DNA from: a virus
DNA length: 64,000 bases
Virus record (IMG/VR): IMGVR_UViG_3300032224_000809
Coordinates: 1-64,000 of that record
Reading direction: 5' to 3' (one strand)
In this document: positions 8,921 to 44,700 of the stretch, piece after piece
Layout of the letters: each line of letters opens with the position of its first letter
How positions within the stretch are numbered: position 1 is the first letter of the stretch
Position numbers and translations under genes: made by a program
The notes under the pieces: generated by a model
Databases searched by the model: none
What the model was told of the DNA's origin: nothing
The model's input: the letters and a program-made list of their open reading frames with translations, nothing else

Positions 8921-9373
8921 ATGGCAAATAAAAATATAGATAATACAGATAATGGCACTGGAGTATTTAATACTAAGGTTCCTGGAATGGATGAGGCTGC
9001 AGATATTCAAGAAGCCCTTCGAATCTACCACTATGGATCAAAAACTCCTCCAGCATCAGAGGCAGACATTGTAAGGCCATCTCTTGTAGGTCATATTAAA
9101 GATATTAAAACAGATATTGCTACCATTAATGCAAAAGGTATTGGAAGCAAATACACAGCCAATGAACCATCATCTATTGTAGATGGAATGATCTGGGTAG
9201 ACTCTGATGTAACTGGTGGAAATGGAGTTCAGTTTGCAACCTCTCAATATCAAACAGCAACACCAACTACTGGTCTTGTTAATGGTTTAATCTGGATTAA
9301 AAAAGGAACTTCACCACTTGAGATGTGGGTTTATGATTCTTCTACTACTGCGTTTGTAAAGGTCGGTGCATAA
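8921..9373 (+). CDS. putative tail fibre connector protein
   Basis: Two P....G.IW motifs typical of phage fibres. Confidence 0.5.
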   Translation: MANKNIDNTDNGTGVFNTKVPGMDEAADIQEALRIYHYGSKTPPASEADIVRPSLVGHIKDIKTDIATINAKGIGSKYTANEPSSIVDGMIWVDSDVTGGNGVQFATSQYQTATPTTGLVNGLIWIKKGTSPLEMWVYDSSTTAFVKVGA

Positions 9374-10023
9374 TGCCAAAATCAATTGATTCAGAATCAA
9401 AAGTAGCATATATATATAGTTCAGAAACAGATAAGTGGCATCCAATTGCAGGAGCGGTTAATACTGGTGCAGCATATACCTGGTCAGCAGATCAGCGGTT
9501 TTCTACTTCTGTAACATTTGAATCTGTAGTTAAAGCAAAGGCTGGAGTAAATAATTTTTTAAACCCAGCAGCAAGAGATTTGGTTTTTACTGATATCTCA
9601 TCAGAAAATAAAAAAGGAATTGTCTGTTTTGTTAGAAATAATGCAGCAGGATTACCAATAAATCAAATTCAATATTTTGATGGAACTAATTGGAGATCAT
9701 ATTCTGATTCTACTTCACTGCTTTCAAAAACCAACACTGCAACATATACAATTGTTTTAGAAGATGCTGGTCGTACAATTATTGCAAACTCAGACACAGT
9801 AAATGAGATTGTTGTTCCAGCAAACAGCACTACTCCATTTGTTATTGGTCAAAGGCTTGACATTATTCGTTACGGCGTTGGAGTTACATCAATTTCTGGT
9901 GCAAACGGGGTAACTATTCAAAGCAAGAATTCTAATAAGAAGATTGCAGCAAGATACTCAGGAGCAACACTTATTAAATTAGAAGAGAACACCTGGATAC
10001 TTGTTGGCGATTTGATAGCGTAA
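9373..10023 (+). CDS. tail fibre/adaptor protein with C-terminal domain shared with 17489..18901
   Basis: C-terminal YT.VL.D.G...P.NS...F.IG..D....G.G....GVT...RYS.ATLIK...NTW...GDL.A. Confidence 0.7.
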   Translation: MPKSIDSESKVAYIYSSETDKWHPIAGAVNTGAAYTWSADQRFSTSVTFESVVKAKAGVNNFLNPAARDLVFTDISSENKKGIVCFVRNNAAGLPINQIQYFDGTNWRSYSDSTSLLSKTNTATYTIVLEDAGRTIIANSDTVNEIVVPANSTTPFVIGQRLDIIRYGVGVTSISGANGVTIQSKNSNKKIAARYSGATLIKLEENTWILVGDLIA

Positions 10024-10032
10024 GGTTTAAAA

Positions 10033-11412
10033 ATGCTGACCACACTAGGGCTATTTGGAAAAGGTATGGTATCAGTACCATCTTTAGTTGGTTTGTCAAA
10101 AACAGAAGCAGAGTTGACAATAACCGCAGCAGGATTGATTATTGGAAGTTCTGCATCAACAGATACAAATACACAGGCAGATAATTTAAAACTTTTTTCA
10201 CAAAATCCACCAAGTGGAACTGAGGTTGATTATGAAACCTCTGTTAGTTTTACTTATAAAACTTATGTTGCTCCAGTTATTAATACAATTAATACAATTA
10301 ATACAATTGATACTATTAACACAATAAATACTATCAACACTATTGCAACAATTAATACAATTAATACTATCGATACAATTAATACAGGACCACAGCCATG
10401 CTGCCAAGATGATGATGCTGGCTATTGTGTCAATGTGGGTTCAGATGGATATGGAACATGGATGCAATATCAATACGATCCATGTACTGCAAGTTCTTGT
10501 CCAGCAAGAAGCATGGGCAGAACATTCTGTGGAGTTCCTAACACAATTAACACAATTAACACAATTAACACAATTAACACAATTGATACAATTAACACAA
10601 TTAACACAATTAACACAATTAACACAATTAATGTGTGCTTGTCAGATGAAATTCCATCAGGAACTGCCTATCGTGCAGAGTGTTGTGGATATGCAGTTAG
10701 AGTTAAGGTTATAGGTTGCTCTGGAACACAAATTGGAACAGCATACTATTGCATTGATTCATGTGCAACTATCGATACTATCAACACTATTAACACTATT
10801 AACACAATTAACACAATCAATACAATCAACACTATTAACACTATCAACACTATTAACACTATCAACACTATTAACACTATCAACACTATTAACACTATTA
10901 ACACTATTAACACTATTGCTACTGGTGGATTCAGTGCTGGATGTTTGCTATACGAAACACCAATTTTGCTTGCCGACAGAACATATAAAAATATTGAAGA
11001 TTTAGAAGTTGGAGATGAACTACTTTCTTTAAATATTTTATCTATACCAGATGAAGAATATCCTACAATACTAGAGTCTTGGAGATCAGATAACATTGAT
11101 GATTCTGTTTTTACAACAACATTTGTAACAGATATAAAGAAAGCAACAAATCCAGGTTATTATTTATTAAATAATAAATTAAAGGTTACCTATGAGCATA
11201 CAATGTTAGTAAAAAGATCCGATGTTTGGATGTTTGTTTCTATGGAGCACGTTGTTGTTGGAGATTATATGGTTGATAGTGAAGGCGATACTATTCGTGT
11301 AGACTCTATTGATTATGATGACTCTGTTGTTAATGTTATTTCTATTGATACAGAAGTAAAAGATATGTATTTTGCAGCAGATATCTTAGTTCACAATATG
11401 TATGCAAAATAA
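10033..11412 (+). CDS. PASTA + (TIN)n arrays + Cys-rich minidomains + C-terminal Hint/BIL domain protein
   Basis: VPSLVG...SQNPPSGT PASTA pattern; G|CLLYETPILLAD...IEDLEVGD block A; TYEH block B; YFAADILVHN terminus. Confidence 0.85.
   Translation: MLTTLGLFGKGMVSVPSLVGLSKTEAELTITAAGLIIGSSASTDTNTQADNLKLFSQNPPSGTEVDYETSVSFTYKTYVAPVINTINTINTIDTINTINTINTIATINTINTIDTINTGPQPCCQDDDAGYCVNVGSDGYGTWMQYQYDPCTASSCPARSMGRTFCGVPNTINTINTINTINTIDTINTINTINTINTINVCLSDEIPSGTAYRAECCGYAVRVKVIGCSGTQIGTAYYCIDSCATIDTINTINTINTINTINTINTINTINTINTINTINTINTINTINTINTIATGGFSAGCLLYETPILLADRTYKNIEDLEVGDELLSLNILSIPDEEYPTILESWRSDNIDDSVFTTTFVTDIKKATNPGYYLLNNKLKVTYEHTMLVKRSDVWMFVSMEHVVVGDYMVDSEGDTIRVDSIDYDDSVVNVISIDTEVKDMYFAADILVHNMYAK
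10279..10923 (+). repeat. three in-frame 9-bp tandem arrays encoding TI(N/D/A): 11, 10 and 17 units
   Basis: 10285-10383, 10543-10632 (near-perfect acaattaac) and 10768-10920. Confidence 0.95.
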
Positions 11413-12001
11413 AATGATAAAGACAGAATACTTTCCTGGGGTAGTTGGATACTCTGGATTAATTCCAGAATCTATTGGTTATGTTGAAGATATTGTTGAT
11501 CTTGCAAATAAAGAACTTATATCTTGGCATAAAACAACAACTGGTCGTGGCAATGTAAATGCTGCAACAGTGATACCAGAATTGCGTCAAGGCTCAGTTA
11601 TTGGTCTTAATGGAATTAGTAAAGAAGAAAAAGTATTTTTGGCGGTATCTACTTTAAAAAATGCAGCAAATCTTGCAGTAAAAGAATGTCTTAATGACTA
11701 TCAAAATAGTTATGGATATTTTGATTTAGAAGGAGAAGGTTGGGCCCTATTAAAGTATGAAGTTGGAGATTTTTTTAAATTGCACACAGATGCCTCTAGG
11801 GCATATCCAAGACAAGTATCTACGGTATACTATATTAATGATGACTACCTTGGAGGAGAAATAAATTTTAAATATATAGACTTAGAATTAAAACCAAAAA
11901 AAGATGAGTTTTTAGTTTTTCCATCAACAAACCTATTTTCTCATTATGCAAAAGAAGTGATAGCGGGTACAAAATATTCAATGCCAAACTGGTTTAGATA
12001 A
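11402..12001 (+). CDS. 2OG-Fe(II) oxygenase (prolyl-4-hydroxylase-like)
   Basis: HTD...YYINDDYLGGE...FPS...H...KY. Confidence 0.88.
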   Translation: MQNKMIKTEYFPGVVGYSGLIPESIGYVEDIVDLANKELISWHKTTTGRGNVNAATVIPELRQGSVIGLNGISKEEKVFLAVSTLKNAANLAVKECLNDYQNSYGYFDLEGEGWALLKYEVGDFFKLHTDASRAYPRQVSTVYYINDDYLGGEINFKYIDLELKPKKDEFLVFPSTNLFSHYAKEVIAGTKYSMPNWFR

Positions 12002-12010
12002 GGATAAAAA

Positions 12011-12604
12011 ATGGAAAAAACAATATTAGGTGATAAGATAGTGGTATACCACAATATATCTAAAACCCCAATGGTAATTATTGATGCAGCCAATGAAATC
12101 ACCAATAAATATCCAAATGTTGGATTTAAAAATGCCACAATTAATAATCATCAATATGATACAAGTTTAAGATCTTGTACCGTTTTTAGTTTATTTCCAG
12201 ACAAATCTGATAAGTCACTTGCTGGAGTAAATGCAAGATTAGAAAAGGTAAAACTTAATCAAAAAATAATTAGCCAAACATCCCTTGCATTGATTGATTT
12301 TATTAAAGAATACGGATTCAAGATTATAGAAAGAGAAGCCTGGGAATTGTTATCATATGAAGAAACTCAAAAACTTACCTGGCACTCAGATAATGGAGAT
12401 CCACACCCTTGCCTAGTTTCCCTGGTTTATTATTTAAATGATGACTATGAGGGTGGAGAGGTGGAGTTTAAAGACCATATAGGTACTCCTTTTAAACCCT
12501 CTGCAGGAGATCTTTTGATCTTTCCATCATCAGTAGAATATGTTCATAGGGTTCTTCCAATAACAAGTGGAAGAAAATATGCTGCTATCTCCTTTTGTAA
12601 GTAA
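12011..12604 (+). CDS. 2OG-Fe(II) oxygenase (prolyl-4-hydroxylase-like)
   Basis: HSD...YYLNDDYEGGE...FPS...HRVLPITSGRKY. Confidence 0.9.
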   Translation: MEKTILGDKIVVYHNISKTPMVIIDAANEITNKYPNVGFKNATINNHQYDTSLRSCTVFSLFPDKSDKSLAGVNARLEKVKLNQKIISQTSLALIDFIKEYGFKIIEREAWELLSYEETQKLTWHSDNGDPHPCLVSLVYYLNDDYEGGEVEFKDHIGTPFKPSAGDLLIFPSSVEYVHRVLPITSGRKYAAISFCK

Positions 12605-12606
12605 AA

Positions 12607-14974: not shown

Positions 14975-16942
14975 ATGGCATCTACAGTAAATAAAGATTT
15001 TAAGATCAAGAATGGTCTTATCGTTGAAGGCGCATCCGCAACAGTCGGTGGCTCAGACGTATTAACAAAGAAGCAGGCAGACATTGATTACATTGTTTCA
15101 CTTGCAGGTGGCGGAGCAGATTCTGCTAACGTTGCAAACAAGGTAGTAAAGCGTGATGCATCAGGTAACTTTGCAGCAGGAACAATCACTGCAGCACTAA
15201 CTGGTAACGCATCAACAGCATCTACACTTGCTACACCAAGAGCAATTGCACTTTCAGGTGATGTTTCTGGTACAGCAAACTTTGATGGTTCAGCAGGAAT
15301 CACAATTACAACAACTCTTAACACAGCATTTGCTACAGATGCAGAAGTTGCTACAGCAAAGTCAGAGGCTATTGCTTCAGCAGCATCAGATGCAACTACA
15401 AAGGCTAATAATGCTAAGTCTGGAGCAGAAGCAACCGCAGCATCTGCACTTTCAACACACGAAGCAGATACAACAAATATTCATGGAATTGCAGATACTG
15501 CACTTCTTGCAACAAAGTCTTATGCTGATGGAAAGGCTTCAGATGCACAAGCAGCAGCAACAACCGCTGCAGCAACAGATGCTACAACTAAGGTTGCAGC
15601 CGAAGCAACTGCACGGGCAACAGCCGTTACAAATGCAATTTCTACTGCTGCATCAGATGCAACTTCTAAGGTTGCAGCAGAAGCAACCGCTAGAGACACA
15701 GCAATTGGAACAGCAATTTCAACAGAAGTTACAAACCGTAACTCTGCTATCTCTTCAGCAATTTCAACAGAAGTTACAAACCGTAACTCAGCAATTTCTA
15801 CTGCAGTTGCAGCCGTTGTTGACTCAGCACCTGCAATGCTTGACACATTGAACGAACTTGCAGCAGCACTTGGAAATAACCCAAATGTTATTACAAACTT
15901 AACCACTACTATTGGAACTAAACTTCCTCTCGCTGGTGGAACACTAACTGGAGCACTTGTTCTTTCAGGTGCACCAACAGCAGATCTTCAAGCAGCAACT
16001 AAGGGCTATGTTGATACAGCAAATACAAATCAGTCAACAACTCTTACAACAGCAATTGCAACTGCAAAGTCAGAAGCAATTTCTACTGCTTCATCAGATG
16101 CTACAACAAAGGCTAACGCAGCCCAGTCTGCTGCAACAACAGCAGCAGCAACAGATGCTACAACAAAGGCTGACGCAGCAAAGGCTTTTGCTACAGCAGC
16201 AGATACAACACTTCGCACAGCAGTAACATCTGATATTGCAACTGCAAAGTCAGAAGCAATCACTGCAGCAGCATCAGATGCTACAACTAAGCGTGATGCA
16301 GCAAAGACTTATGCTGACGGACTTATTGCAACAGAAGTTACTAACCGTAACTCAGCAATCACAGCAGCAACTGGAGCGCTATCAACTTCAACAATTGCAG
16401 AAGGTACAAATAAGTACTTTACAGATGCTAGAGCAGTCGCAGCAGTATCTGGTGCAATTACAGCAGCAGTTGACGCAATCAATACAGATGCAATTGAAGA
16501 AGGTACTTCAAACCTTTACTTCACAAATGCTCGTGCACTAACAGCAGTTGGTGGATCAGTAACAACAGCAATTGCAAATGGTGATTCAACAGCATCACCA
16601 ACATATCTTGCTGTAAAGTTGGGAACACTTGCAAAAGAGTTTGCAGCAACAGTTAACGTACCAACAGCATCAACAGCAACAGCATATTCATGGCCAATTG
16701 CAGATTTCAGATCTGCAAAGGTACTTGTAAAGACCAAGAATGGAACACACACTGAAATTTCAGAGTTACTCCTAACACTTGATACTTCAAACAACATTGC
16801 TATTACAGAATACGCACTTGTTGGAACAAATGGCACACTTGCCACAGTTACAGCAGACGTAAACGGTACTGACGCAAGAATTCGGGTAACAACAATCAAT
16901 GCATCATCAGATGTATACGTTGTTGGAACTCTTATTGCTTAA
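14975..16942 (+). CDS. long Ala/Thr-rich tail fibre
   Basis: DATTKA and EVTNRN repeats, LDTLNELAAALG, EGTNKYFT motifs. Confidence 0.8.
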   Translation: MASTVNKDFKIKNGLIVEGASATVGGSDVLTKKQADIDYIVSLAGGGADSANVANKVVKRDASGNFAAGTITAALTGNASTASTLATPRAIALSGDVSGTANFDGSAGITITTTLNTAFATDAEVATAKSEAIASAASDATTKANNAKSGAEATAASALSTHEADTTNIHGIADTALLATKSYADGKASDAQAAATTAAATDATTKVAAEATARATAVTNAISTAASDATSKVAAEATARDTAIGTAISTEVTNRNSAISSAISTEVTNRNSAISTAVAAVVDSAPAMLDTLNELAAALGNNPNVITNLTTTIGTKLPLAGGTLTGALVLSGAPTADLQAATKGYVDTANTNQSTTLTTAIATAKSEAISTASSDATTKANAAQSAATTAAATDATTKADAAKAFATAADTTLRTAVTSDIATAKSEAITAAASDATTKRDAAKTYADGLIATEVTNRNSAITAATGALSTSTIAEGTNKYFTDARAVAAVSGAITAAVDAINTDAIEEGTSNLYFTNARALTAVGGSVTTAIANGDSTASPTYLAVKLGTLAKEFAATVNVPTASTATAYSWPIADFRSAKVLVKTKNGTHTEISELLLTLDTSNNIAITEYALVGTNGTLATVTADVNGTDARIRVTTINASSDVYVVGTLIA

Positions 16943-17488: not shown

Positions 17489-18901
17489 ATGGCAACTAGA
17501 ATGCAACAGCGCAGAGGAACTGCAGCCCAATGGACGGCAGCAGATCCAATTTTAGCAGCAGGAGAAATTGGGTTTGAAACAGACACCAGCCAGTTCAAAA
17601 TGGGCGATGGCGTTAATGCATGGTCAACTCTCTCCTACTTTAAGAACTTAGAAGACTTGGGTGGTACTCTTGATGATTACATCCCACTAACCCAAAAGGG
17701 TGCAACCAATGGTGTAGTCCCTCTTGATGGCTCAGGTAAGATTCCAATTGGATACCTTACAAACCTTATTGCAAACGCACCAGAAGCACTTGATACACTT
17801 AAAGAACTTGCAGATGCAGTTACTTATGTTACAAATCAAGTTTCTGGACATAATGGAACAACAACAAATGTTCACGGTATCGCAAATACAGGAGCACTTG
17901 CTACAACTACAGCAGTTACTACAGCAATTGCGACACACGAAGCAGATACAACAAATGTTCACGGAATTGCAGATACATCAGTACTTGAAACAACATCTGG
18001 AGCACAAACTAAGGCCAATGCAGCAGCACTTGCTGAAGTAAATGCTCACAAGGTAATCACAACTTCAGTACACGGAATTGCTGATACAGCACTTCTTGCT
18101 ACAAAGGTATATGCCGATGCAGTAGGAACAACAGAGGCTTCAAGCCGTGCAACAGCAATCTCAACACATAATTCAGCAACAGCAAACGTACACGGAATTT
18201 CTGATACATCTGCTCTTGCTACAAAGACATATGCTGATGGTAATGTTACAACACACAACTCAGCAACAACAAGCGTACACGGAATTGCAGATACTTCACT
18301 TCTTGCAACTAAGTCATACGTAGATACAGCAGATGCTCTTAAGGCAGCGCTTGCATCACCAGCATTCACTGGCACACCAACTGCTCCAACAGCAACAGCA
18401 GGAACAAATACTACACAGGTAGCAACAACAGCGTTCGTAGGAACAGCAGTTTCAGCACTCGTAGCATCTGCTCCAGCAGCACTTGACACACTTAATGAGT
18501 TGGCAGCAGCGCTTGGTAGCGATGCAAACTTCTCAACAACAATGACAAATGCTCTTGCTCTAAAGGCAAGCAAGGCTGAACTTTCAGCAGCAACTGTCGC
18601 ATCATTTAATAACAAGACAACTTCTTACACACCAGTACTTTCAGATGAAGGAAATGTAATTGAAATGGATTCTGCTTCAGCAAATTCTGTTACAATTCCA
18701 CCAAACTCATCAGTAGCATTTACAATTGGTTCATCAATCGATGTATTCCAAAAGGGTACAGGCCAGACAACAATCGTTGCAGGTGCAGGAGTTACAGTTC
18801 TTAATACACCAGGACTCAAGTTCCGTGATCGTTACTCAATGGCAACATTGATCAAGCGTGATACAAATACTTGGATCGTTTCTGGCGACTTGACAGCGTA
18901 A
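17489..18901 (+). CDS. tail fibre with Mtd_N/hyaluronidase-N-like start, HGIADT repeats and shared C-terminal domain
   Basis: QRRGTAAQW...GEIGFETDT..FK.GDG; five H-x7-HGI repeats; ends ATLIKRDTNTWIVSGDLTA. Confidence 0.8.
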   Translation: MATRMQQRRGTAAQWTAADPILAAGEIGFETDTSQFKMGDGVNAWSTLSYFKNLEDLGGTLDDYIPLTQKGATNGVVPLDGSGKIPIGYLTNLIANAPEALDTLKELADAVTYVTNQVSGHNGTTTNVHGIANTGALATTTAVTTAIATHEADTTNVHGIADTSVLETTSGAQTKANAAALAEVNAHKVITTSVHGIADTALLATKVYADAVGTTEASSRATAISTHNSATANVHGISDTSALATKTYADGNVTTHNSATTSVHGIADTSLLATKSYVDTADALKAALASPAFTGTPTAPTATAGTNTTQVATTAFVGTAVSALVASAPAALDTLNELAAALGSDANFSTTMTNALALKASKAELSAATVASFNNKTTSYTPVLSDEGNVIEMDSASANSVTIPPNSSVAFTIGSSIDVFQKGTGQTTIVAGAGVTVLNTPGLKFRDRYSMATLIKRDTNTWIVSGDLTA

Positions 18902-18932
18902 TACAAATTTAATAAGAAAAAAGGAGATATAA

Positions 18933-20288
18933 ATGGCAACTATTCGTAGAGGTGGTAAAGCAGGTAAATCTGCTAAGGCTGCAGTAAGTTTTTGGGGAGT
19001 AGCCCCAGGGCAACCTTACATCGTAAGCGTAGTCCCAGGTTTTGGTGGAGCATATTTCTCATCAACAGCCGTGATTACATTCAATAAGAATGCTATGGGT
19101 GCCACTCCTTCTTCTTATACAATTTTCGCTAACTCAGTATATGGAACTACTACATTCACAGCAACGTCTTCACCATTTACAGTTACAGGTTTAAGAGCAG
19201 GTACAGCATACGCATTCACAATTCTTGCAAATGCTCCAGTTGGTCAGGCAGCAACAGCAACAACATCTGTAGCGTCTTCACAGAGTAACGCAGATATAAA
19301 GTCTGTTCCTGATGCTCCAACAGGAGTTACAGCATCATCACCATCAGGTGCAACATATGACACAGTGTCATGGTCAGCACCAGCAGATAACGGTGGAGAA
19401 GCAATTACTAACTATCAGATTGAATCTTCTGACGGAAAGTCTGCTACAGTAAATGCTCTTACAACAAATATTGCACAAGAAGCAGGAACAGCACAGACAT
19501 ACCGTGTTAGAGCCTACAATGCTCAGGGTTGGTCAGAATGGTCTGCATGGTCAGCATCTGTTACAACATTCTCATTTGTGCCGTTCTCAGTATTCGGATT
19601 CTCCCCATTCGGAGTATTTGGATTCTCACCATTCGGCGTGTTCGGATTCTCTCCATTCGGATTCTCTCCGTTCGGTGTATTCGGATTCTCTCCGTTCGGT
19701 GTATTTGGGTTCTCACCATTTGGTTTCTCACCATTCGGAGTATTTGGATTCTCACCATTCGGTGTATTCGGATTCTCTCCAGGAGGAGGATGTATTGCTC
19801 CTGATACACTAGTATCAGTTGTTGGTCCAGAAGACACATACATTCAGATTCCTGCAAAGGATGTTGTTACTGGACAAGAAGTATGGGCACACTCATTTGA
19901 TGAAATGATAGATGAAACTGTTGCTGATCCAATGACACTTGCTTTTGATAAATTGACAAACCAAGCAATTGTTAAGACAAACGTTGCATCTGTTGTTGAA
20001 AAAGAAATGCCAGCAACATTGACAATTAACGGGGACTCAACAAAGAAGTATTCAACTGTACAGGGAATTCTATATAAGCGTAATGGAATCTATGGATACA
20101 TTAGTACAGGACTTCTAGAAGTTGGAGACTATGTAATGGAATATGATTACAATTTTCATGCTTTCAATGAGATTCTAGTAACATCAATTGAAATTGATGA
20201 AACTCCATCAACAGTTTATAAGTTTGACATGGAACCAGCAGATACATTTATTGCTGGAAACATGGTAGTACACAATCGTAAGTCATGA
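18933..20288 (+). CDS. FN3 domains + FSPFGVFG array + C-terminal Hint/BIL domain protein
   Basis: PDAPTGV...WSAPADNGG.AITNY...YRVRAYN FN3; GGG|CIAPDTLV; TFIAGNMVVHN terminus. Confidence 0.85.
   Translation: MATIRRGGKAGKSAKAAVSFWGVAPGQPYIVSVVPGFGGAYFSSTAVITFNKNAMGATPSSYTIFANSVYGTTTFTATSSPFTVTGLRAGTAYAFTILANAPVGQAATATTSVASSQSNADIKSVPDAPTGVTASSPSGATYDTVSWSAPADNGGEAITNYQIESSDGKSATVNALTTNIAQEAGTAQTYRVRAYNAQGWSEWSAWSASVTTFSFVPFSVFGFSPFGVFGFSPFGVFGFSPFGFSPFGVFGFSPFGVFGFSPFGFSPFGVFGFSPFGVFGFSPGGGCIAPDTLVSVVGPEDTYIQIPAKDVVTGQEVWAHSFDEMIDETVADPMTLAFDKLTNQAIVKTNVASVVEKEMPATLTINGDSTKKYSTVQGILYKRNGIYGYISTGLLEVGDYVMEYDYNFHAFNEILVTSIEIDETPSTVYKFDMEPADTFIAGNMVVHNRKS
19569..19790 (+). repeat. FSPFG(VFG) peptide array with 8-8-5 higher-order period
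   Basis: Nine FSP units; synonymous codons differ between units. Confidence 0.95.
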
Positions 20289-20293
20289 TGTAA

Positions 20294-21010
20294 TTGCTTT
20301 ACCATCATCATGCGCCAAGGACTTCAGGCCTATTCATTAGATCTGCGGTCCATTTGGCTTTTCAGACCAATAAACTAAAATCAGCAATTGTTTATCATGA
20401 TAGGGCCATTAGTCCAGACATGTTTAAAGATGTTGAGTTTATTTCTGGACACTTAGGGAACTATCCTAATCTATTTATTAAAGATTTAAAATCTTTTACA
20501 ATATTAAGAGATCCAGTTGAGAGGTTTATTAGTTGGTTCTTTTTCATGTATGAAAACTCCAGAAGTTTTGAGGAACTTGAAAAAATATTTGACCAGTGGC
20601 TATATAACCCAGAGATATATCCATACCTTTCAGACATGCAAACAAAATTTTTGACGGGAACTGTAGATGAAGCAGGATTTAACAGCACTAAAAGCATAAT
20701 GGATAAAACCATGAATGAGTGGTTTCTTAAAGATTATTCGTTTGATGAGTCAGTAATGCAGGACAAAGTTGACTCTATTGGTTGTTATACAGTGGAGACC
20801 AGAGATATACTATTAGATGACATAATTAGGTATATGGGTAAAACATATGGCTTTGTCCCAAACTTTCAGCACAGACATATGATGTTTAACTCAAGCACAT
20901 CTAAAAGGTTTGACATAACTGATAAAATGATTAACAGGATTAAAGAACTAAACCAGCATGATATAATTTTATATGAGATGGCAAAAAAGTCTAATCCAAA
21001 GCCACTTTAA
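20294..21010 (+). CDS. sulfotransferase-family protein
   Basis: HAPRTSG (HIPKTAG-like 5'-PSB loop), SGH, LRDPVERFISWF (3'-PB), ELNQHDIILY. Confidence 0.75.
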   Translation: MLYHHHAPRTSGLFIRSAVHLAFQTNKLKSAIVYHDRAISPDMFKDVEFISGHLGNYPNLFIKDLKSFTILRDPVERFISWFFFMYENSRSFEELEKIFDQWLYNPEIYPYLSDMQTKFLTGTVDEAGFNSTKSIMDKTMNEWFLKDYSFDESVMQDKVDSIGCYTVETRDILLDDIIRYMGKTYGFVPNFQHRHMMFNSSTSKRFDITDKMINRIKELNQHDIILYEMAKKSNPKPL

Positions 21011-21050
21011 GCAATATGGTATACTAGTATAAATAGCAAAGGGAGCAGTA

Positions 21051-21716
21051 ATGAACATGAATCAATATCCAACCGATATTCAGAGTGTGAGCAAGTCCAC
21101 TCAGCCACATAAGTTTTTTGAAAGATATCTTAACAATAACCTATCGGTCCTAGCATCAGAACTACAGGATAGATATGAAAAGATTGAAAAAGCAAAAGTT
21201 GTAGGCGTAACTCCAGTAGGTGCTAACGAAGCCTGGAAGCAGTCAAATAGTGTATCAACAATGAAGTGGAGACAGTATAATGTTTTCCAATTCCACTCAA
21301 CTGGTATTTATAATTTGTACAAATCGGTAAAAGATATGACAATTGAAGCATGCGACTACTACGGTATTGATTTTGAAAAAGAAAAGTTTATGCTTCAGGG
21401 ATGGTTTAATATTACTCATGCTGGTAAGGGTAAACTTGATTGGCATGATCATGGTCCAACTGGTGCTCCAAACTTTCATGGGTACTACTCTGTAAGTGCA
21501 GAGCCTTCAATTACCTACTACAAGGTTTTTGATAAGGAGATTGAGAATCATAACAAGAATGATCGTGCAATCCTTTCTGAAATGGGGCATCCACACTCTA
21601 TGGCCGATTGGGACTGGGAAGGTCCAAGAATTACAGTTGCCTATGACGTTATTCCATTAAGAGATATTCAAAAGTTTGGAATGGATCAAGAGCAACATTG
21701 GATTCCACTAGCATGA
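21051..21716 (+). CDS. putative 2OG-Fe(II) oxygenase (TIGR02466-like cupin)
   Basis: WFN...HDH...GYY...H...RITVAYD. Confidence 0.7.
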   Translation: MNMNQYPTDIQSVSKSTQPHKFFERYLNNNLSVLASELQDRYEKIEKAKVVGVTPVGANEAWKQSNSVSTMKWRQYNVFQFHSTGIYNLYKSVKDMTIEACDYYGIDFEKEKFMLQGWFNITHAGKGKLDWHDHGPTGAPNFHGYYSVSAEPSITYYKVFDKEIENHNKNDRAILSEMGHPHSMADWDWEGPRITVAYDVIPLRDIQKFGMDQEQHWIPLA

Positions 21717-22348
21717 TAGCAATGGCAAAACCAAGTCACAAGTTTTTTGAAAGACATTTAAGTCTAGATCTTCCAAAACTCGAAACATCTCTTTTGAGTC
21801 TTAAAGAAAGACTTTCTTCTGAAAATGTTCCAGGGGTAAAAAATAAAGACTATGAGTCAGTAGATAAAGCATCATTTACTACTCAACTAGGAGAGAAGTA
21901 TAATATCTTTCAGTTTCATGATGAGAATATTAGAGCACTTTATTCTTCAATTAGAGACATGGTTTTAGAAGCCTGTGACTACTATGGTATTAATGCTAAA
22001 GATCAAAACTATATGATTCAGGGATGGTTTAATGCTGATAAAAATAGCAAGCCAGAGCCACTACCAAATACATATCTTCATGACCATTTAAACGGTCAAG
22101 GAGCACCAGATTTTCATGGATACTACTGCGTTAATGCAGAGCCTTCATATACAAAGTATATGATTTCAGGAGAGACAGAGTTTTTGAATGTTAATGTTAA
22201 TAACCGTGCAATCCTTTCTGAAACTGGACATGCTCATGGTATTAGCAACTGGCCTTTTGAAAAAGACAGAATCACAATTGCTTATGATGTGTCTCCATTG
22301 CAAAATATGAAAGGCTCACCAGAACAGCATTGGGTTCCAATCCTATGA
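21713..22348 (+). CDS. putative 2OG-Fe(II) oxygenase, paralog of 21051
   Basis: Same HKFFER, YN.FQFH, HDH, RAILSE, RITIAYD and EQHW blocks; ATGA overlap. Confidence 0.7.
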   Translation: MIAMAKPSHKFFERHLSLDLPKLETSLLSLKERLSSENVPGVKNKDYESVDKASFTTQLGEKYNIFQFHDENIRALYSSIRDMVLEACDYYGINAKDQNYMIQGWFNADKNSKPEPLPNTYLHDHLNGQGAPDFHGYYCVNAEPSYTKYMISGETEFLNVNVNNRAILSETGHAHGISNWPFEKDRITIAYDVSPLQNMKGSPEQHWVPIL

Positions 22349-38715: not shown

Positions 38716-41700
38716 GTGTCTGATGTAAATGCTAATATAGGCATACATTTTGATACGGCCACGGCTCTTTCAGAATTAAGAAGGCTTCAGGCTGGTCTAA
38801 GCAAGTTTAACCAATCCTTAACACAAGGAAACATTGCTGCTGAAAATGCACAAAAGGGTTTAAACAGTCAACTCATTCAGTCGATTAATCAAACTGGAAA
38901 GTTTATTGCTAGCCAAAAGGATGTCCATACATCTACTGCAGCCTTCACCTCTGCGCTGGAAAAGAACCAGTTAAGCCTTAAACAATACTTTAGATATACC
39001 GCTGCAGCCACCTCATTAAACAGTAATGTCTTAAAAAACTTTTTTGCTCAAGAAAAAGAAATTCTTCAACGTGCAAGTAAAGATAGAGTAAAGACTCTTC
39101 AAAGCCAGTATATCCAGTTAACAAATGCTAATGGTCAATTAGTAAAAACTCTTCAGGTAATGCCAAAGCATCTACAGATGACTGGTGGAGCATACACAGA
39201 TTATGCAACACGAATACAAATGGCTGCACAAAGACAACAGTTCTTGAATCAACTATTAAAGCAGGGTTCAACACAACTACTAAACTTTGGTAAAAATACT
39301 CAATGGGCAGGCCGTCAGTTGATGGTTGGTTTAACAATTCCTTTGACAATGCTTGGATCATTTGCTGCTAAAACATTTAAAGAGATGGAAGAGGCAACTG
39401 TAAAGTTCCAGCGTGTATATGGAGATATGGCAACAAGCGTTGCAGAAACAGACAAGGCTGTTGCTGGAATTAAAAGACTTGCTAGCGAGTTCACAAAGTA
39501 TGGTGTTGCAGTAAAAGATACAATGAACATGGCTGCAGATGCAGCAGCAGCAGGTTATTCTGGCGCAGCCCTTACCGCTCAAGTAACGCAGGCAACTAGA
39601 CTTGCAGTTCTTGGTCAAGTGGATCAACAGCAAGCATTAGAAACAACTATTTCTTTACAGAATGCCTTTGGAATATCTTCTGAACAATTAGCAACCAAGA
39701 TTAACTTCCTCAACGCTGTAGAAAACCAAACAGTTTTGTCTATTGAAGATTTAACTATTGCAATTCCAAAAGCAGCCCCTGTTGTAAAACAACTTGGAGG
39801 ATCTGTTGAAGACCTAGCCTTCTTCCTTACAGCAATGAAGGAAGGTGGAATCAACGCATCAGAAGGTGCCAACGCACTTAAGTCTGGCCTTGCAGCAATG
39901 ATCAATCCTTCTAAGAAAGCATCAGATATGCTTGCTGGTCTTGGAATTAATATTAAGGGAATTGTTAATAATAATGCGGGGGATTTAAAAGGCACCGTAG
40001 TAGGATTTGCAAGAGCACTAGATACACTAGATCCTCTTAACCGTGCTAAAGCAATTGAGCAGATGTTTGGCAAGTTCCAGTTTGCCCGTCTATCAACATT
40101 ATTCCAGAACATAACAAAAGATGGCAGTCAGGCTTCTAGAGCACTAGGTTTGGCAGGTGCTTCTATGGAAGAGTTAGCAATCTTGGCAGAGCGAGAAACA
40201 GCAAAGATTGAAAATGCAACTGGTAAGAAATTCCAAAAAGCAATTGAAGATATGAAGGTTCAGTTGATGCCTTTGGGTAAGGCATTCCTTGAGGCTGCAA
40301 CTCCTATTGTAAAATTTGTTGGAAATATATTAGAAAAATTTAATAACCTAAGCGATGGAACAAAAAAGATCATAACAACTATCGTTGGAGTGGTTGGAGG
40401 TTTGGCCCCAGTAGCACTTATGGCATTTGGTTTACTTGCTAACGGAACTGCAAACGTAATCAAGTTCTTTGCAATGCTTCGTGGAGGAATGGCAAAACTT
40501 AATGGACAAAGCAACGTCCTTGGTGCAGGCTTTGACTATATGACTCAGCAACAGATCGAAAGTCTTGCTCAGTCTAATGCCCTTCATACATCACATCAAA
40601 AATTAATTGAAACATTTAATGTTGAAGCAGGAGCAGCAAATGCACTAGCAGCAGCATATGGAAATGCAGCATCACAAGCAAGAGCACTCTCAATGTCCTC
40701 TCCAGGATTGTTTAATGCAGCACCAGGAGCAGCAGGGGCAACATCAGGTCTTTCTCCAAGAAAGAAATATGCAGAAGGTGTATTTAGTGTTCCAGGATCA
40801 GGAACTGGAGATACTGTTCCAGCAATGCTGACTCCAGGAGAAACAGTTGTATCAAAAAAGAATACAGATAAATATGGACCACTTCTTAAAGCAATTGGAA
40901 ATGATTCTGTTCCAGGATATGCAAATGCAGGAATGGTTGGTGCAGATGGACAAAGAATTTCATTTAATGGTCAGAGTTATGAAATACCAAATAGATCAAC
41001 ACCACAAAGCGCTAACCTTGCATTAATTTCAGAACTATCTAAGTTTAGCAAGGATGTAGAGGGTGTCTCTCGTGTATTAAAAATGCTTGAAGCCCAAGCC
41101 AAAATAGCAGGGGATGGATTTAAAAAATTATCTGGGGAAACAATAAAGACTATTCTCGAACAAGAAGGTGTATTAAGAAATAGACCAAAGGGAACTTCTG
41201 CAACAACGTACAATGGAGAAAATTATGTGTTTGCACATGGACAGTCTCCTGGCGCCCCAATAAGAGATCCACAAGAATTGCAAAGACTTGCAGATATGGC
41301 AACATCAAAAACATCTGGAGTTGGAAAACACCTACAGTCTTCGGCAGATGCTGCTAAGGCAGGAGATCCAAACGGATATGCTAGACAGTTTAGCAACTTT
41401 GGATTTATGCTACCAGAAAAAGCAAACAAGGGACAAATGTCCCCTACAGATCTTGCATCTAAATTTGGTGGAAAAGATATGGCAGTCACCATGGCCCCAA
41501 TGTATGATCAGTATGCAAGGTCAATGGGTATGTCACTTGAAGAAGCACTTAATAATCCTGCTGTCGCTGCACAAATGCATACAGACATGCAAACATTTGC
41601 AAGTAGAATTTCAAGCGAAGTTTCAAAAATTCCAACAGAGTTTGTTAATGATCCAGAATTTTACGCAGCAGTAAAGCAAGCACAATCCCAACTTGGAGAT

Positions 41701-44700
41701 TCTGTTAGTGGAATGATGAAACAGGCAATTGCTGATGCTAAAGCAACTTCTGTTGTTGGAACATTTGGTGGAGAAGCAAACCGTGGATCAGAAGGACAAA
41801 GAATATCTTTGGCAGGAAAAGAAACAGCATTAAGAACAGAGTTAGGGGCTTCATCAAACGCAAAGCCATACAGAAAGAGAAACCCAGAATTTGTAAAAGC
41901 ATCAACAGAGATTAGTGATGCACTCGATAAAGACTTAACAAGAGCAGAAAAGCAAATTGCTCAAACAGCATCTCCATCAAAGAGAACTAAGAAACTAGGG
42001 CAAGATATTGGAGATGGTTTATCTCAAGGTCTTGCCTCAAAGGCTAGTGCTGTATCAGCACAGTCAGATAAATTAAAGAAGGCTGCAAAAGTTGATACAG
42101 GTAATAAACAGTTCTATGATGATATTAATACTCCAGATATGAGAGACCAAAGACAGGTCCTTAAATCTCTTGATAGAAGAAGAAGAGATGGCAAGGGGTC
42201 ACTATCTTCTGGCGCAGGCTCAGGCGGAATTGATAAAACATCTGCAACATTAACATTACAGATGGGCAAACTTTCTAAAGCAACTGGGGATTCACTAGAG
42301 GCACAGAGAAGACATCAAGATAACATAGTAACAGCGTCAGATCTTGCTAAAGCAACAGCAAACAGTTCACAACAAATTGCTAATGCAGCAGATCAAACAG
42401 CAAATGCACAACAAAACTCATCAATGCTTGCAGATCAAATTTCAAAGAAAGATCGTGAAATTCTTGCAGAGAAAGAAAAAGAACTTGCTGCACTTCGTGC
42501 AAAAATTAACTCATCAGCATCACAATCTCAAAACCTTGATACCAGAATGACAAAAGAACAAGCGCTCAAAGAAGCCTCTGGATATGCTCGTGAAGATGGC
42601 AAAGTATTTATTGATCCAGGTACAGGCGACCCAATGGACAAGAAAACATACAACAAGATGAAGCGTGGTATGCGTAGAGAAAAGGTTGGAAAGTTCTCTG
42701 GTAAGGCTGCAGGAGGCCTAGGAATTGCCACTATGGTTGCAGGCGCAGTGGGGGCACCACCAGCAGTAACAGGAGCACTTGGAGCAGCATCCACAGTTGC
42801 ATCTATTGCCCCAGCCCTAGCAGGTATGGGACCAGTTGGTTGGACTGTTGCAGGAATAGCAGCACTTGGTGCTGGAGCATATATGCTAAATAAACATTTT
42901 GAAAATGCAGCAAAAGAAACTGCAAAATTTGTAACTGCAACATCTGCTACATCTGATTTAATGAAAAAGATTGGTCAAGAAACTGGTCTTGTTGGTGCAT
43001 CTGAAATTATGAATAAGAGAAGAGGAAATGGACTCCTCTCTGGATATAATGAAGCAGCACGTAAAGGAACCATGGAGGGCGAGAAGTTTATGGGGTCTGC
43101 AACTGGTAAAGAGTTGACAGCCACATATACAAAGAACGCAAATCAAAATGGTTCAGAAGTAGCAGCACAACAGTTTGCAATGCAGTTGGCAGCAGCCGTT
43201 TCTGATGGAACAATGAGTGCAGATCTTGCAAGTCAGGTTGCATATCAACTAGGAGTTAACCTAAAAGACTCTAGTATTTCTATGAAAGTTGATGGACAAT
43301 TAAGAAATCTCATTGGACCAAATGGAGAAGATTTAACAAGAGATCCATTAACAGTTAGAACACGTCTTGCAGTTATTGCAGGAGCAAGATCTGGTCAAAT
43401 AGTTAATGGTCTAGATGAGGCTTTAGCAAAGGGCAATAGTGGAAGAACTGAAGCAGCAGCCCTTGCAGCAGCAGGAACAAACGCAGTTGAGATGGCCCAG
43501 ATGCAAGCCGATGGAATGGCAAGATATTATGAAGATCAATTAAAATCTTTGACAGCACAACGTGCAGCAACTACCGATAAAGCAAAACAGTTAGAACTTG
43601 ATACCCAAATTAAAGCAATGCAGGATAAACAAATAGCGGGTATGGAAACAATGAATAGGCTTGTTTCTGCTCAGATTGCAAAGCAAGAAGCATTTGTAGC
43701 AGATAAGGTAATTGGAGCATACACTGGAACAGCAAAAGAAGATGCATATTTTGATGCAAATAAGGCTGATGTAAAAGCAAAGTATAAAGGTACAGCATAT
43801 GAGGCATCGGCACAAAGAGTGCTTAATGTTGGTGCACGTGCCGATGAAGATAAATCTTTTGGCAGCGTAAAGGCTGGTAGAGTATTTGAAGCAAAAATTC
43901 AAATGCTTATGGCTTCTGGTCAGTTGAATCCTAATCAAATGGAAACAATGCTAAAAATATTTGATGGCAATCTTGCAAGCATGGATGTTGCTTTAAATGT
44001 TGGAATTAGAAAACAGGGCGCTACAAAGGTAGCAGAACTTACATCTCTCCTCTCTGGAATGAAAAATAAAACAACAGCGCAAAGTATTGTTTTAAATATG
44101 GTTAGAAAGAGTCCAGCAGAGTTTGATAGAGTTGGCAAGGCTCTAGCATTACTTCAAGCCTCTGATGGCCTAGAGGTAGATATGAGCGCTTACATAGATA
44201 CAGTTGGTTTACCAGGTCTTGAAAAACTTGCAAAAAATCTTGATCTAATTGAAGCAATGAAAACCCCTATTACAAAAGAAGCAGTTATTCAATTTGGAAA
44301 AGATACATTAACTAATATGCAGGGGGTTATTGACAATTGGGACTATTTTAGTAAATTAAAAGACCCAGTACAAAAAGAAGCCATTCAAACATACACAACA
44401 CTTTATGATACTTTAATACATTTTGAAAATGAAGATGCACGTCGTGCTTGGGCAGATAAAATGGCAAAAGACGAAGCAGGCCTGTATGGTAAACCAGGTT
44501 CAACTGAATATACAACTGTCTATAATACTAAGTTTAATGCGTTAACTTCTGGAACACTTAATGATCCAGCAGCAGCAGCAAAACTTGCTTTTGATATGGA
44601 TCAGGCAAAATACGGAAAAGATCCTGTAATTGCTTCAAAGCCTGCAGGTCCAGCAACCGACACTGGCTCAGGTAATAAACCAGCAGACCCATATGCAGAT

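Follow-up and report, generated by a model that had tools for sequence, protein, structure and literature searches.

What is an intein-like Hint domain doing at the end of a phage tail protein, directly behind a tract built from only five kinds of amino acid? The question is raised by an open reading frame (ORF) of 451 amino acids at positions 18933-20288 (+) of a 64,000-nucleotide stretch of an uncultured phage (IMG/VR record IMGVR_UViG_3300032224_000809, positions 1-64,000; hereafter the window). The ORF sits in the tail-fibre region, and its product consists, in order, of a basic N-terminal peptide, two FN3 domains, a 74-residue tract of Phe, Gly, Ser, Pro and Val, a domain running from Cys287 to Asn448, and the three-residue tail Arg-Lys-Ser. 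An earlier note on this DNA had described these elements and read them as an FG-nucleoporin-like array, activated at a Gly-Gly end and modified by the enzymes encoded downstream. When sequence and alignments were read again, its description was confirmed throughout. Of its interpretation, the real Hint domain, the altered block B and the conserved junction stood, while the Gly-Gly end, the link to sulfation and the likeness to nucleoporins did not.

The chemistry of Hint domains is known from inteins, Hedgehog proteins and bacterial BIL domains; as a routine maturation step of phage tail-module proteins it is, to our knowledge, not known. We favor the reading, at a probability of roughly 60%, that the domain is a BIL-like cap that removes itself from a greasy-tailed adhesin of the tail module. 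This reading is supported by the HINT fold, the conservation of the junctions, the co-variation of Ser1 with a block-B histidine, the alleles that lack the domain, and the position in the tail-fibre block, all of which, like the architecture itself, are established; a lysine in the tail adds to this support.

Fold and junction residues of the C-terminal domain

By its fold, the C-terminal domain is a genuine HINT protein. Because a Foldseek search with the whole protein was swamped by matches to tandem FN3 domains, the domain was refolded alone with AlphaFold2 (AF2) from an alignment of 51 sequences, which gave a predicted local confidence (pLDDT) of 96. This model had 54 Foldseek matches in the PDB at E<=1e-3, and among the matches listed all were inteins, BIL domains or Hedgehog proteins (TMt 0.7-0.8). 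The top match was BIL2 of Tetrahymena BUBL (6y75, E=8e-8, TM ~0.7), and further matches included the DnaB, RadA and RecA inteins, the BIL domain 2lwy and Hedgehog 1at0. By sequence, a single-sequence search of the PDB gave only a match of E=0.05 to the BIL domain of C. thermocellum, and a profile of the family matched 2lwy (C. thermocellum BIL) at E=9e-11, the Pho RadA intein at 2e-9 and KlbA at 2e-8. A precomputed match to PF14890 is present in a few relatives.

The block-B motif Thr-x-x-His is replaced by Ser-Thr-Val-Gln, as had been suspected from the sequence, both when the family members are aligned with one another and when a profile is aligned to inteins and BIL domains of solved structure; the protein ends in H447-N448-R449-K450-S451, with the non-nucleophilic +1 residue that had likewise been pointed out. 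With type-A BIL domains (Amitai 2003; Dassa 2004; PDB 2lwy), which include its best match by sequence profile, the phage domain shares a small, endonuclease-free HINT fold, an N-terminal Cys (or Ser), a C-terminal His-Asn without a nucleophilic +1 residue, and an embedding in variable surface-type proteins. It differs from them in its strictly C-terminal position behind a low-complexity repeat, in a tail of 1-5 residues that always contains Lys, in its host, a phage tail-module protein, and in its active site: their block-B Thr-x-x-His is missing, with Gln or Glu at its His position in ~80% of members, and Asp takes the place of the block-F His. Canonical class 1 inteins are followed by a C-extein whose first residue is Cys, Ser or Thr; such a C-extein is absent here, where Asn448 is followed by Arg-Lys-Ser only. 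The same 3 residues stand where Hedgehog and Hog proteins have a sterol- or adduct-recognition region.

Metagenomes hold more than 590 homologues of the protein, and the Hint domain alone gives 135 representatives at 50% clustering. Junction residues were counted in 168 near-complete Hint domains. The first residue is Cys in 159, Ser in 5 and Val in 3 of these; Thr292 is kept in 160, Asn366 in all 168, Asp437 in 153, His447 in 161 and Asn448 in 160. Block B begins with Ser (150) or Thr (18), and its "His" position holds Gln (89), Glu (46) or His (33) and no other residue. The mean column identity is 19-34%, well below the conservation of these junction residues. The earlier note had made its reading depend on Cys1 and His-Asn being kept among homologues, and both are strongly kept. 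At +1, the common residues are Lys, Arg, Leu, Ala, Gly, Pro, Ile and Tyr, with Cys, Ser and Thr outside these eight commonest.

The residues at the two ends of the domain do not vary independently of block B. Among ~25 distinct Ser1 variants, every one has retained the block-B His and has His-Asn changed to His-Asp or Phe-Asp followed by a longer acidic tail, while Cys1 variants have Gln, Glu or His at the block-B position and end in His-Asn. Selection on the chemistry would be expected to leave just such a pattern of co-variation. In addition, a lysine is found in the tail of 155/155 members that end in His-Asn, usually at +1 to +3, the tails being mostly 1-5 residues long.

Some subclades lack His-Asn and have tails such as YN-AYP, CC or FD. 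Hint domains of one subclade finish with ...IAGDIVCC or ...IIAC at the His-Asn site (L071:3674-4972, L074:10001-11356 and L076:5965-7284).

The Phe/Gly tract and alleles without the Hint domain

Residues 213-286 comprise 27 Phe, 18 Gly, 11 Ser, 10 Pro and 8 Val, and nothing else. They are arranged as FSFVP, FSVFG, units of 8-8-5-8-8-5-8-8 residues and a final FSPGGG; the ordered 8-8-5 tract, put at about 70 residues before, has 74. Tandem Repeats Finder (TRF) gives periods of 24, 15 and 63 nucleotides (nt). The unit FSPFGVFG occurs in six copies, and since these encode the same eight residues, with differences confined to synonymous third positions, it is the peptide, rather than a DNA repeat, that is under selection, as had been proposed.

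The repeat is kept in hundreds of homologues, far beyond chance. Across the family, its composition is 35% Phe, 17% Gly, 15% Pro, 15% Ser and 8% Val, and the tract is free of charge in 58/100 members. Its length ranges from 17 to 220 residues family-wide and from 32 to 90 among homologues that are more than 85% identical; copy number shifts fast, with the composition being held. More distant members carry FFxPP, PFFPYF, FPWFPPW or FTPYS repeats at the same place.

The tract does end in Gly-Gly-Gly (residues 284-286) directly before Cys287. Among the 168 relatives, the -1 residue is Gly in 57, Arg in 30, Ser in 20, Ala in 14 and Phe in 14, and the -2 residue is Gly in 34, Ser in 27 and Pro in 26, with others making up the rest; even homologues that are more than 85% identical carry GRG, GGA or GRGG before Cys1. 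As both positions are variable and a conserved Gly-Gly at the activated C-terminus was not found in these relatives, the "ubiquitin-like Gly-Gly" is a local accident, specific to the near relatives of the window. The likeness to FG nucleoporins also proved to be compositional only, because hydrophilic spacers are absent. Both are rich in Phe-Gly dipeptides, uncharged and predicted to be disordered (pLDDT <50 for the phage tract), and cohesive behavior of the tract is conceivable. In nucleoporins, however, the FG motifs are spaced by hydrophilic linkers, whereas the phage tract has 35% Phe (27/74 residues here), no spacers and no homology to them, leaving predicted disorder as the sole trait shared beyond composition; sister phage proteins moreover swap the tract for FFxPP, FTPYS, Thr-Ile-Asn (TIN), Gln-Asn-Thr (QNT) or Thr/Pro repeats.

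Two alleles in related phages (L073:1559-2416 and L078:10007-10849) encode the two FN3 domains and the repeat without a Hint domain. In both, a stop codon follows the repeat directly, and ~45 nt further on another gene begins. In a tree of the FN3 region, these represent two separate losses, with L073 nested (support 100/96) among relatives that bear the Hint domain. The existence of two independent alleles of this kind indicates that FN3-FN3-repeat is a functional end product and that the Hint domain is dispensable, which is what a cap that removes itself would predict. Domains of the Ser1 and Cys1 types are interleaved on this tree, showing that the cap is exchanged as a module, and adhesin-type modules of the PASTA, FN3, Ig-like and Flg_new kinds all occur with the same Hint domain as their cap.

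Removal of the cap: proposed mechanism and its precedents

We propose that the product of the ORF is a precursor, made up of the N-terminal peptide, the FN3 pair, an uncharged aromatic tail and a divergent BIL-type Hint domain, which matures into an adhesin or an accessory protein of the tail-fibre module. Cys287 would attack the carbonyl of Gly286 in an N-S acyl shift, yielding a thioester. Hydrolysis could then release the acyl group, or the amine of Lys450 in the tail could attack it in a step coupled to cyclization of Asn448; the second route would amount to a BIL- or BUBL-like "splicing" without a +1 nucleophile. The Hint domain would leave behind a mature FN3-FN3-repeat protein, with or without an Arg-Lys-Ser stub. 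Until assembly, the cap may keep the greasy repeat soluble or unexposed, and the repeat itself would serve as a sticky or cohesive tail of variable length, selected for its composition. BIL domains without a +1 nucleophile give chiefly N- and C-cleavage products (PMC7664689), and inteins can make up for a lost block-B His, those that naturally lack it being active (PMC6333167).

Several points weigh against this proposal. Cleavage, the resolution of the thioester, the location in the virion and the target of the repeat are all steps that we infer. Curated models stay below threshold, PF14890 scoring 15.6 bits against a cut-off of 35.8 and NCBIfam giving no match. The catalytic histidines of canonical inteins in blocks B and F are here Gln and Asp, and compensation by the steric effect of a bulky -1 residue (PMC6333167) finds no support, as this residue is Gly in 46/89 members of the Gln type. 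The strict retention of His-Asn and Lys would not be explained by removal alone, unless the tail participates. For the repeat, AF2 yields no structure.

Loss of a C-terminal module during maturation has precedents in other proteins. In Hedgehog and Hog proteins (1at0), a C-terminal Hint domain cleaves before its Cys via a thioester and releases an N-terminal "adduct" domain, and the phage subclade with Ser1 and block-B His but without Asn is Hog-like in using the N-terminal junction only. The phage protein differs in having no sterol-recognition region and in the His-Asn that is absent from Hog, and no lipid acceptor is implied. A functional analogy exists with the chaperones of the Peptidase S74 type in tailspikes and fibres, where a C-terminal module aids maturation and then cleaves itself off; there, however, a Ser-Lys dyad protease of unrelated fold acts instead of a Hint acyl shift, and no sequence or fold match between these chaperones and the phage protein was found.

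The layout is common in uncultured phages. Hundreds of family members occur in metagenomes, those of lakes among them; in these proteins, adhesin-type domains bear low-complexity tails that are interchangeable (Phe/Gly, Phe/Pro, Tyr/Thr/Pro, Thr-Ile-Asn or Gln-Asn-Thr) and are capped by the Hint domain. Among 50,697 GenBank phage records, no homologue of the Hint domain was detected even at E<=1, and the sole match was to the FN3 part, in Streptomyces phage Scap1; relatives in UniProt and BFVD are automatically named proteins of "uncultured Caudovirales phage". In the literature, we found no paper that describes the FN3-FN3-repeat-Hint architecture with its motifs or the repeat motifs themselves, and the papers on phiCbK and CBB report terminase or ribonucleotide reductase inteins only. 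If the proposal is right, these phages would offer natural material for studying alternative acyl-shift catalysis, since most members lack the "essential" block-B histidine and yet bear all the marks of selection on their junctions along with an invariant lysine behind them, and possibly a compact source of self-cleaving or ligating tags. The virion would carry a greasy appendage of variable length, whose target may be the actinobacterial cell wall.

Genomic setting and competing explanations

The genomic context was surveyed in 80 IMG/VR loci, all from one syntenic clade of phages of ~110-125 kb. A phage carries at most two Hint-capped genes, one after an adaptor gene (slot A) and one after a fibre gene (slot B; coordinates in the table). 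Slot B of the window is ORF 18933-20288, just 3' of a fibre gene that begins with an Mtd_N domain (E=5e-13). In slot A, the protein combines a PASTA domain (PF03793, E=6e-7), three (Thr-Ile-Asn)n arrays parted by two Cys-rich inserts, and the sequence GGFSAG directly before the Cys of a Hint domain whose block B is classical (T-Y-E-H) and which terminates in HN-MYAK. The proteins encoded upstream of the two slots have a C-terminal domain of ~95 residues in common (43% identity, E=8e-20), and a Hint ORF directly follows an ORF ending in this domain in 98/100 non-edge cases. Slot-A repeats are of the TIN, QNT, Thr/Pro-rich or FG type and are swapped even between near-identical phages. That the repeat docks onto the upstream fibre domain is unlikely, as the adaptor is ~90% identical between the window and L001, with the slot-A repeat changing from TIN to FG; a complex prediction for the upstream fibre C-terminal domain and the full precursor scored 0.00, which counts neither way on binding. 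Ala-Cys, seen above at the end of some Hint domains, also ends Hint-less PASTA/Cys-rich slot-A proteins of related phages (L074:338-1195 and L078:1659-2909).

The strict pairing with one common fibre domain, found twice in the phage of the window, invites a second explanation, in which the thioester moves FN3-FN3-repeat onto an external amine, such as a lysine of the upstream fibre or the virion or a group on the host envelope, to form a covalent (iso)peptide link. The earlier note had suggested conjugation of this kind, and it has a precedent in BUBL BIL2 (6y75/6tmm), the best structural match, which resolves its thioester on the epsilon-amine of Lys to give isopeptide products, a possible model for the tail lysine, and attaches its N-extein to other proteins (PMC8616854). 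The Hint cap could be a lysine-directed ligase whose Cys287 thioester is captured by the tail lysine, a fibre lysine or a host-envelope amine, and the invariance of His-Asn and the nearby Lys would fit such a role. BIL2, however, lies between ubiquitin-like domains of a eukaryotic poly-protein, keeps its catalytic His69 and is ~16% identical, whereas the phage domain is preceded neither by a ubiquitin-like fold nor by a conserved Gly-Gly. The unconserved -1 and -2 residues argue in the same direction, and a conserved lysine in cis favors an intramolecular reaction. Moreover, Hint-less alleles occupy the same slot behind the same upstream fibre domain, so that conjugation by the Hint domain is not essential to the function of the protein, and the adjacency may be plain synteny, given that all loci belong to one clade. 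We consider both the transfer to an external partner and the wider activity as a ligase improbable. If such a ligase existed, the adhesin would be isopeptide-linked, or "harpooned", without ATP or enzymes, and BUBL-like chemistry would occur in a virus on a histidine-free (Gln/Asp) active site.

Another explanation starts from the genes at 20294-22348, which come directly 3' of the Hint gene. The first of these has a TTG start 5 nt past the Hint gene stop and encodes a Sulfotransfer_2-like sulfotransferase, whose matches (PF03567, 25.4 bits; the phrog "galactose-3-O-sulfotransferase") are of the carbohydrate type and which is present in only 21/80 loci, those nearest the window. It is followed by HDH1 and HDH2, tandem paralogues with H-D-H...G-H-x-H motifs that have no Pfam match and resemble PF13759 2OG-FeII_Oxy_5 clusters by ESM language-model features only. 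Homologues of HDH1/HDH2 lie 3' of the Hint gene in 73/80 loci, and HDH1 is 65-99% conserved, versus 36-55% for the preceding Hint gene. At four loci with FG/FY repeats, they are replaced by an unrelated gene of ~245 amino acids that is weakly DUF6065-like. Whether the repeat contains Phe or Tyr was considered as a correlate of the presence of HDH1/HDH2 and rejected, as L075 and L079 have Phe repeats without these genes.

On this basis, the locus could be a cassette for a tailored peptide, comparable to those of ribosomally synthesized and post-translationally modified peptides, in which the repeat would be a substrate array for hydroxylation or sulfation and the Hint domain would release or activate the product. 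Such a function would be compatible with a cap that removes itself. The clearest link between enzymes and repeats is in slot A, not at ORF 18933-20288: a PF13640 oxygenase directly follows polar or Thr/Pro repeats in 9/9 cases and FG-type repeats in 0/12. In the window, two genes for PF13640 (prolyl 4-hydroxylase-like) 2-oxoglutarate-Fe(II) oxygenases form a clean indel of ~1.2 kb, at 11402-12604, relative to L001:3504-3518, where the flanks are 90-94% identical, and it coincides with the swap of the slot-A repeat from TIN to FG, so that the oxygenase pair and the TIN repeat were gained or lost together. For the Phe/Gly tract, the suggestion that its Ser-Pro and Phe residues are hydroxylated and sulfated by the downstream enzymes was not borne out, given the patchy and carbohydrate-type sulfotransferase, the absence of oxygenases next to FG repeats in slot A and the replacement of HDH1/HDH2 at the four loci; sulfation of Phe is, in addition, impossible without prior hydroxylation. 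Because all 80 loci form one syntenic clade, the adjacency of Hint gene and enzymes carries little weight, and a cassette of this kind seems to us equally improbable.

Least probable of all is a dead Hint domain, retained as a structural remnant such as an anchoring or oligomerization module after self-processing was lost with the block-B and block-F histidines: these replacements, the subclades without His-Asn and the subthreshold curated models would fit it, but Cys1 or Ser1 in 164/168 relatives, His-Asn in ~95%, the Ser1/His co-variation and the invariant tail lysine are hard to explain without catalysis, and the active inteins that naturally lack the block-B His argue against it as well.

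Table. Features of ORF 18933-20288 and of neighboring genes in the window
Feature	Position	Strand	Basis or remark
Adaptor gene, upstream of slot A	9373-10023		
~95-residue C-terminal domain of the adaptor gene	9742-10020	+	Common to both genes upstream of Hint genes
Hint gene of slot A	10033-11412	+	
Two PF13640 oxygenase genes	11403-12605	+	
Fibre gene	14975-16942	+	
Fibre gene, upstream of slot B	17489-18901	+	Mtd_N
~95-residue C-terminal domain of the upstream fibre gene	18614-18898	+	Comparison with gene 9373-10023
Shine-Dalgarno-like AAGGAG	18921-18926	+	7 nt 5' of ATG; direct sequence reading
Basic N-terminal peptide, residues 1-19, MATIRRGGKAGKSAK...	18933-18989	+	Conserved motif among slot-B homologues
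First FN3-like beta-sandwich, ~residues 26-122	19008-19298	+	Pfam fn3 E=3.7e-5 on fragment
Second FN3, residues 127-207	19311-19553	+	Pfam PF00041 E=1.5e-12, 48 bits; phrog_6977 minor tail protein
Phe/Gly/Ser/Pro/Val repeat, residues 213-286, ends GGG (284-286)	19569-19790	+	Uncharged; FSPFGVFG/FSPFG units
BIL-like Hint domain, Cys287-Asn448, 162 residues	19791-20276	+	AF2, Foldseek, profile match
Cys287, predicted N-terminal nucleophile (Hint Cys1)	19791-19793	+	C in 159/168 relatives
Block B S374-T375-V376-Q377 replacing T-x-x-H	20052-20063	+	Family and profile alignments
Asp437, at block-F His position of inteins/BIL domains	20241-20243	+	Aligned to His of 2lwy and Pho RadA intein
His447-Asn448, block-G end of Hint	20271-20276	+	H 161/168, N 160/168
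Tail Arg449-Lys450-Ser451	20277-20285	+	Lys450 in family-wide HN-x(0-4)-K motif
Sulfotransferase gene	20294-21010	+	TTG start
HDH1	21051-21716	+	
HDH2	21698-22348	+	
2862-residue ORF	38716-47304	+	GTG start

In the AF2 model of the protein, the N-terminal peptide (residues 1-19) is predicted to be disordered (pLDDT <50), the strands of the first FN3 domain reach a pLDDT of 80-92, with tandem FN3 domains as Foldseek matches, and the FN3 pair as a whole 80-96.

The phage is large and siphovirus-like, and the window as a whole covers the region of its structural and replication genes, among them genes for a portal, a protease, a major capsid protein, a DnaE-type polymerase and a class II ribonucleotide reductase. 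By capsid protein, the closest isolates are Streptomyces phages of ~130 kb (41% identity). Matches on four contigs of metagenome-assembled genomes from several taxa are probably mis-binned phage and were not used to infer a host. Both fibre proteins in the table contain many copies of a motif of the type T-T-N-V-H-G-I-A-D-T-x-x-L-A-T, along with long Ala/Thr-rich coiled segments. The 2862-residue ORF in the tail region presumably encodes the tape measure protein.

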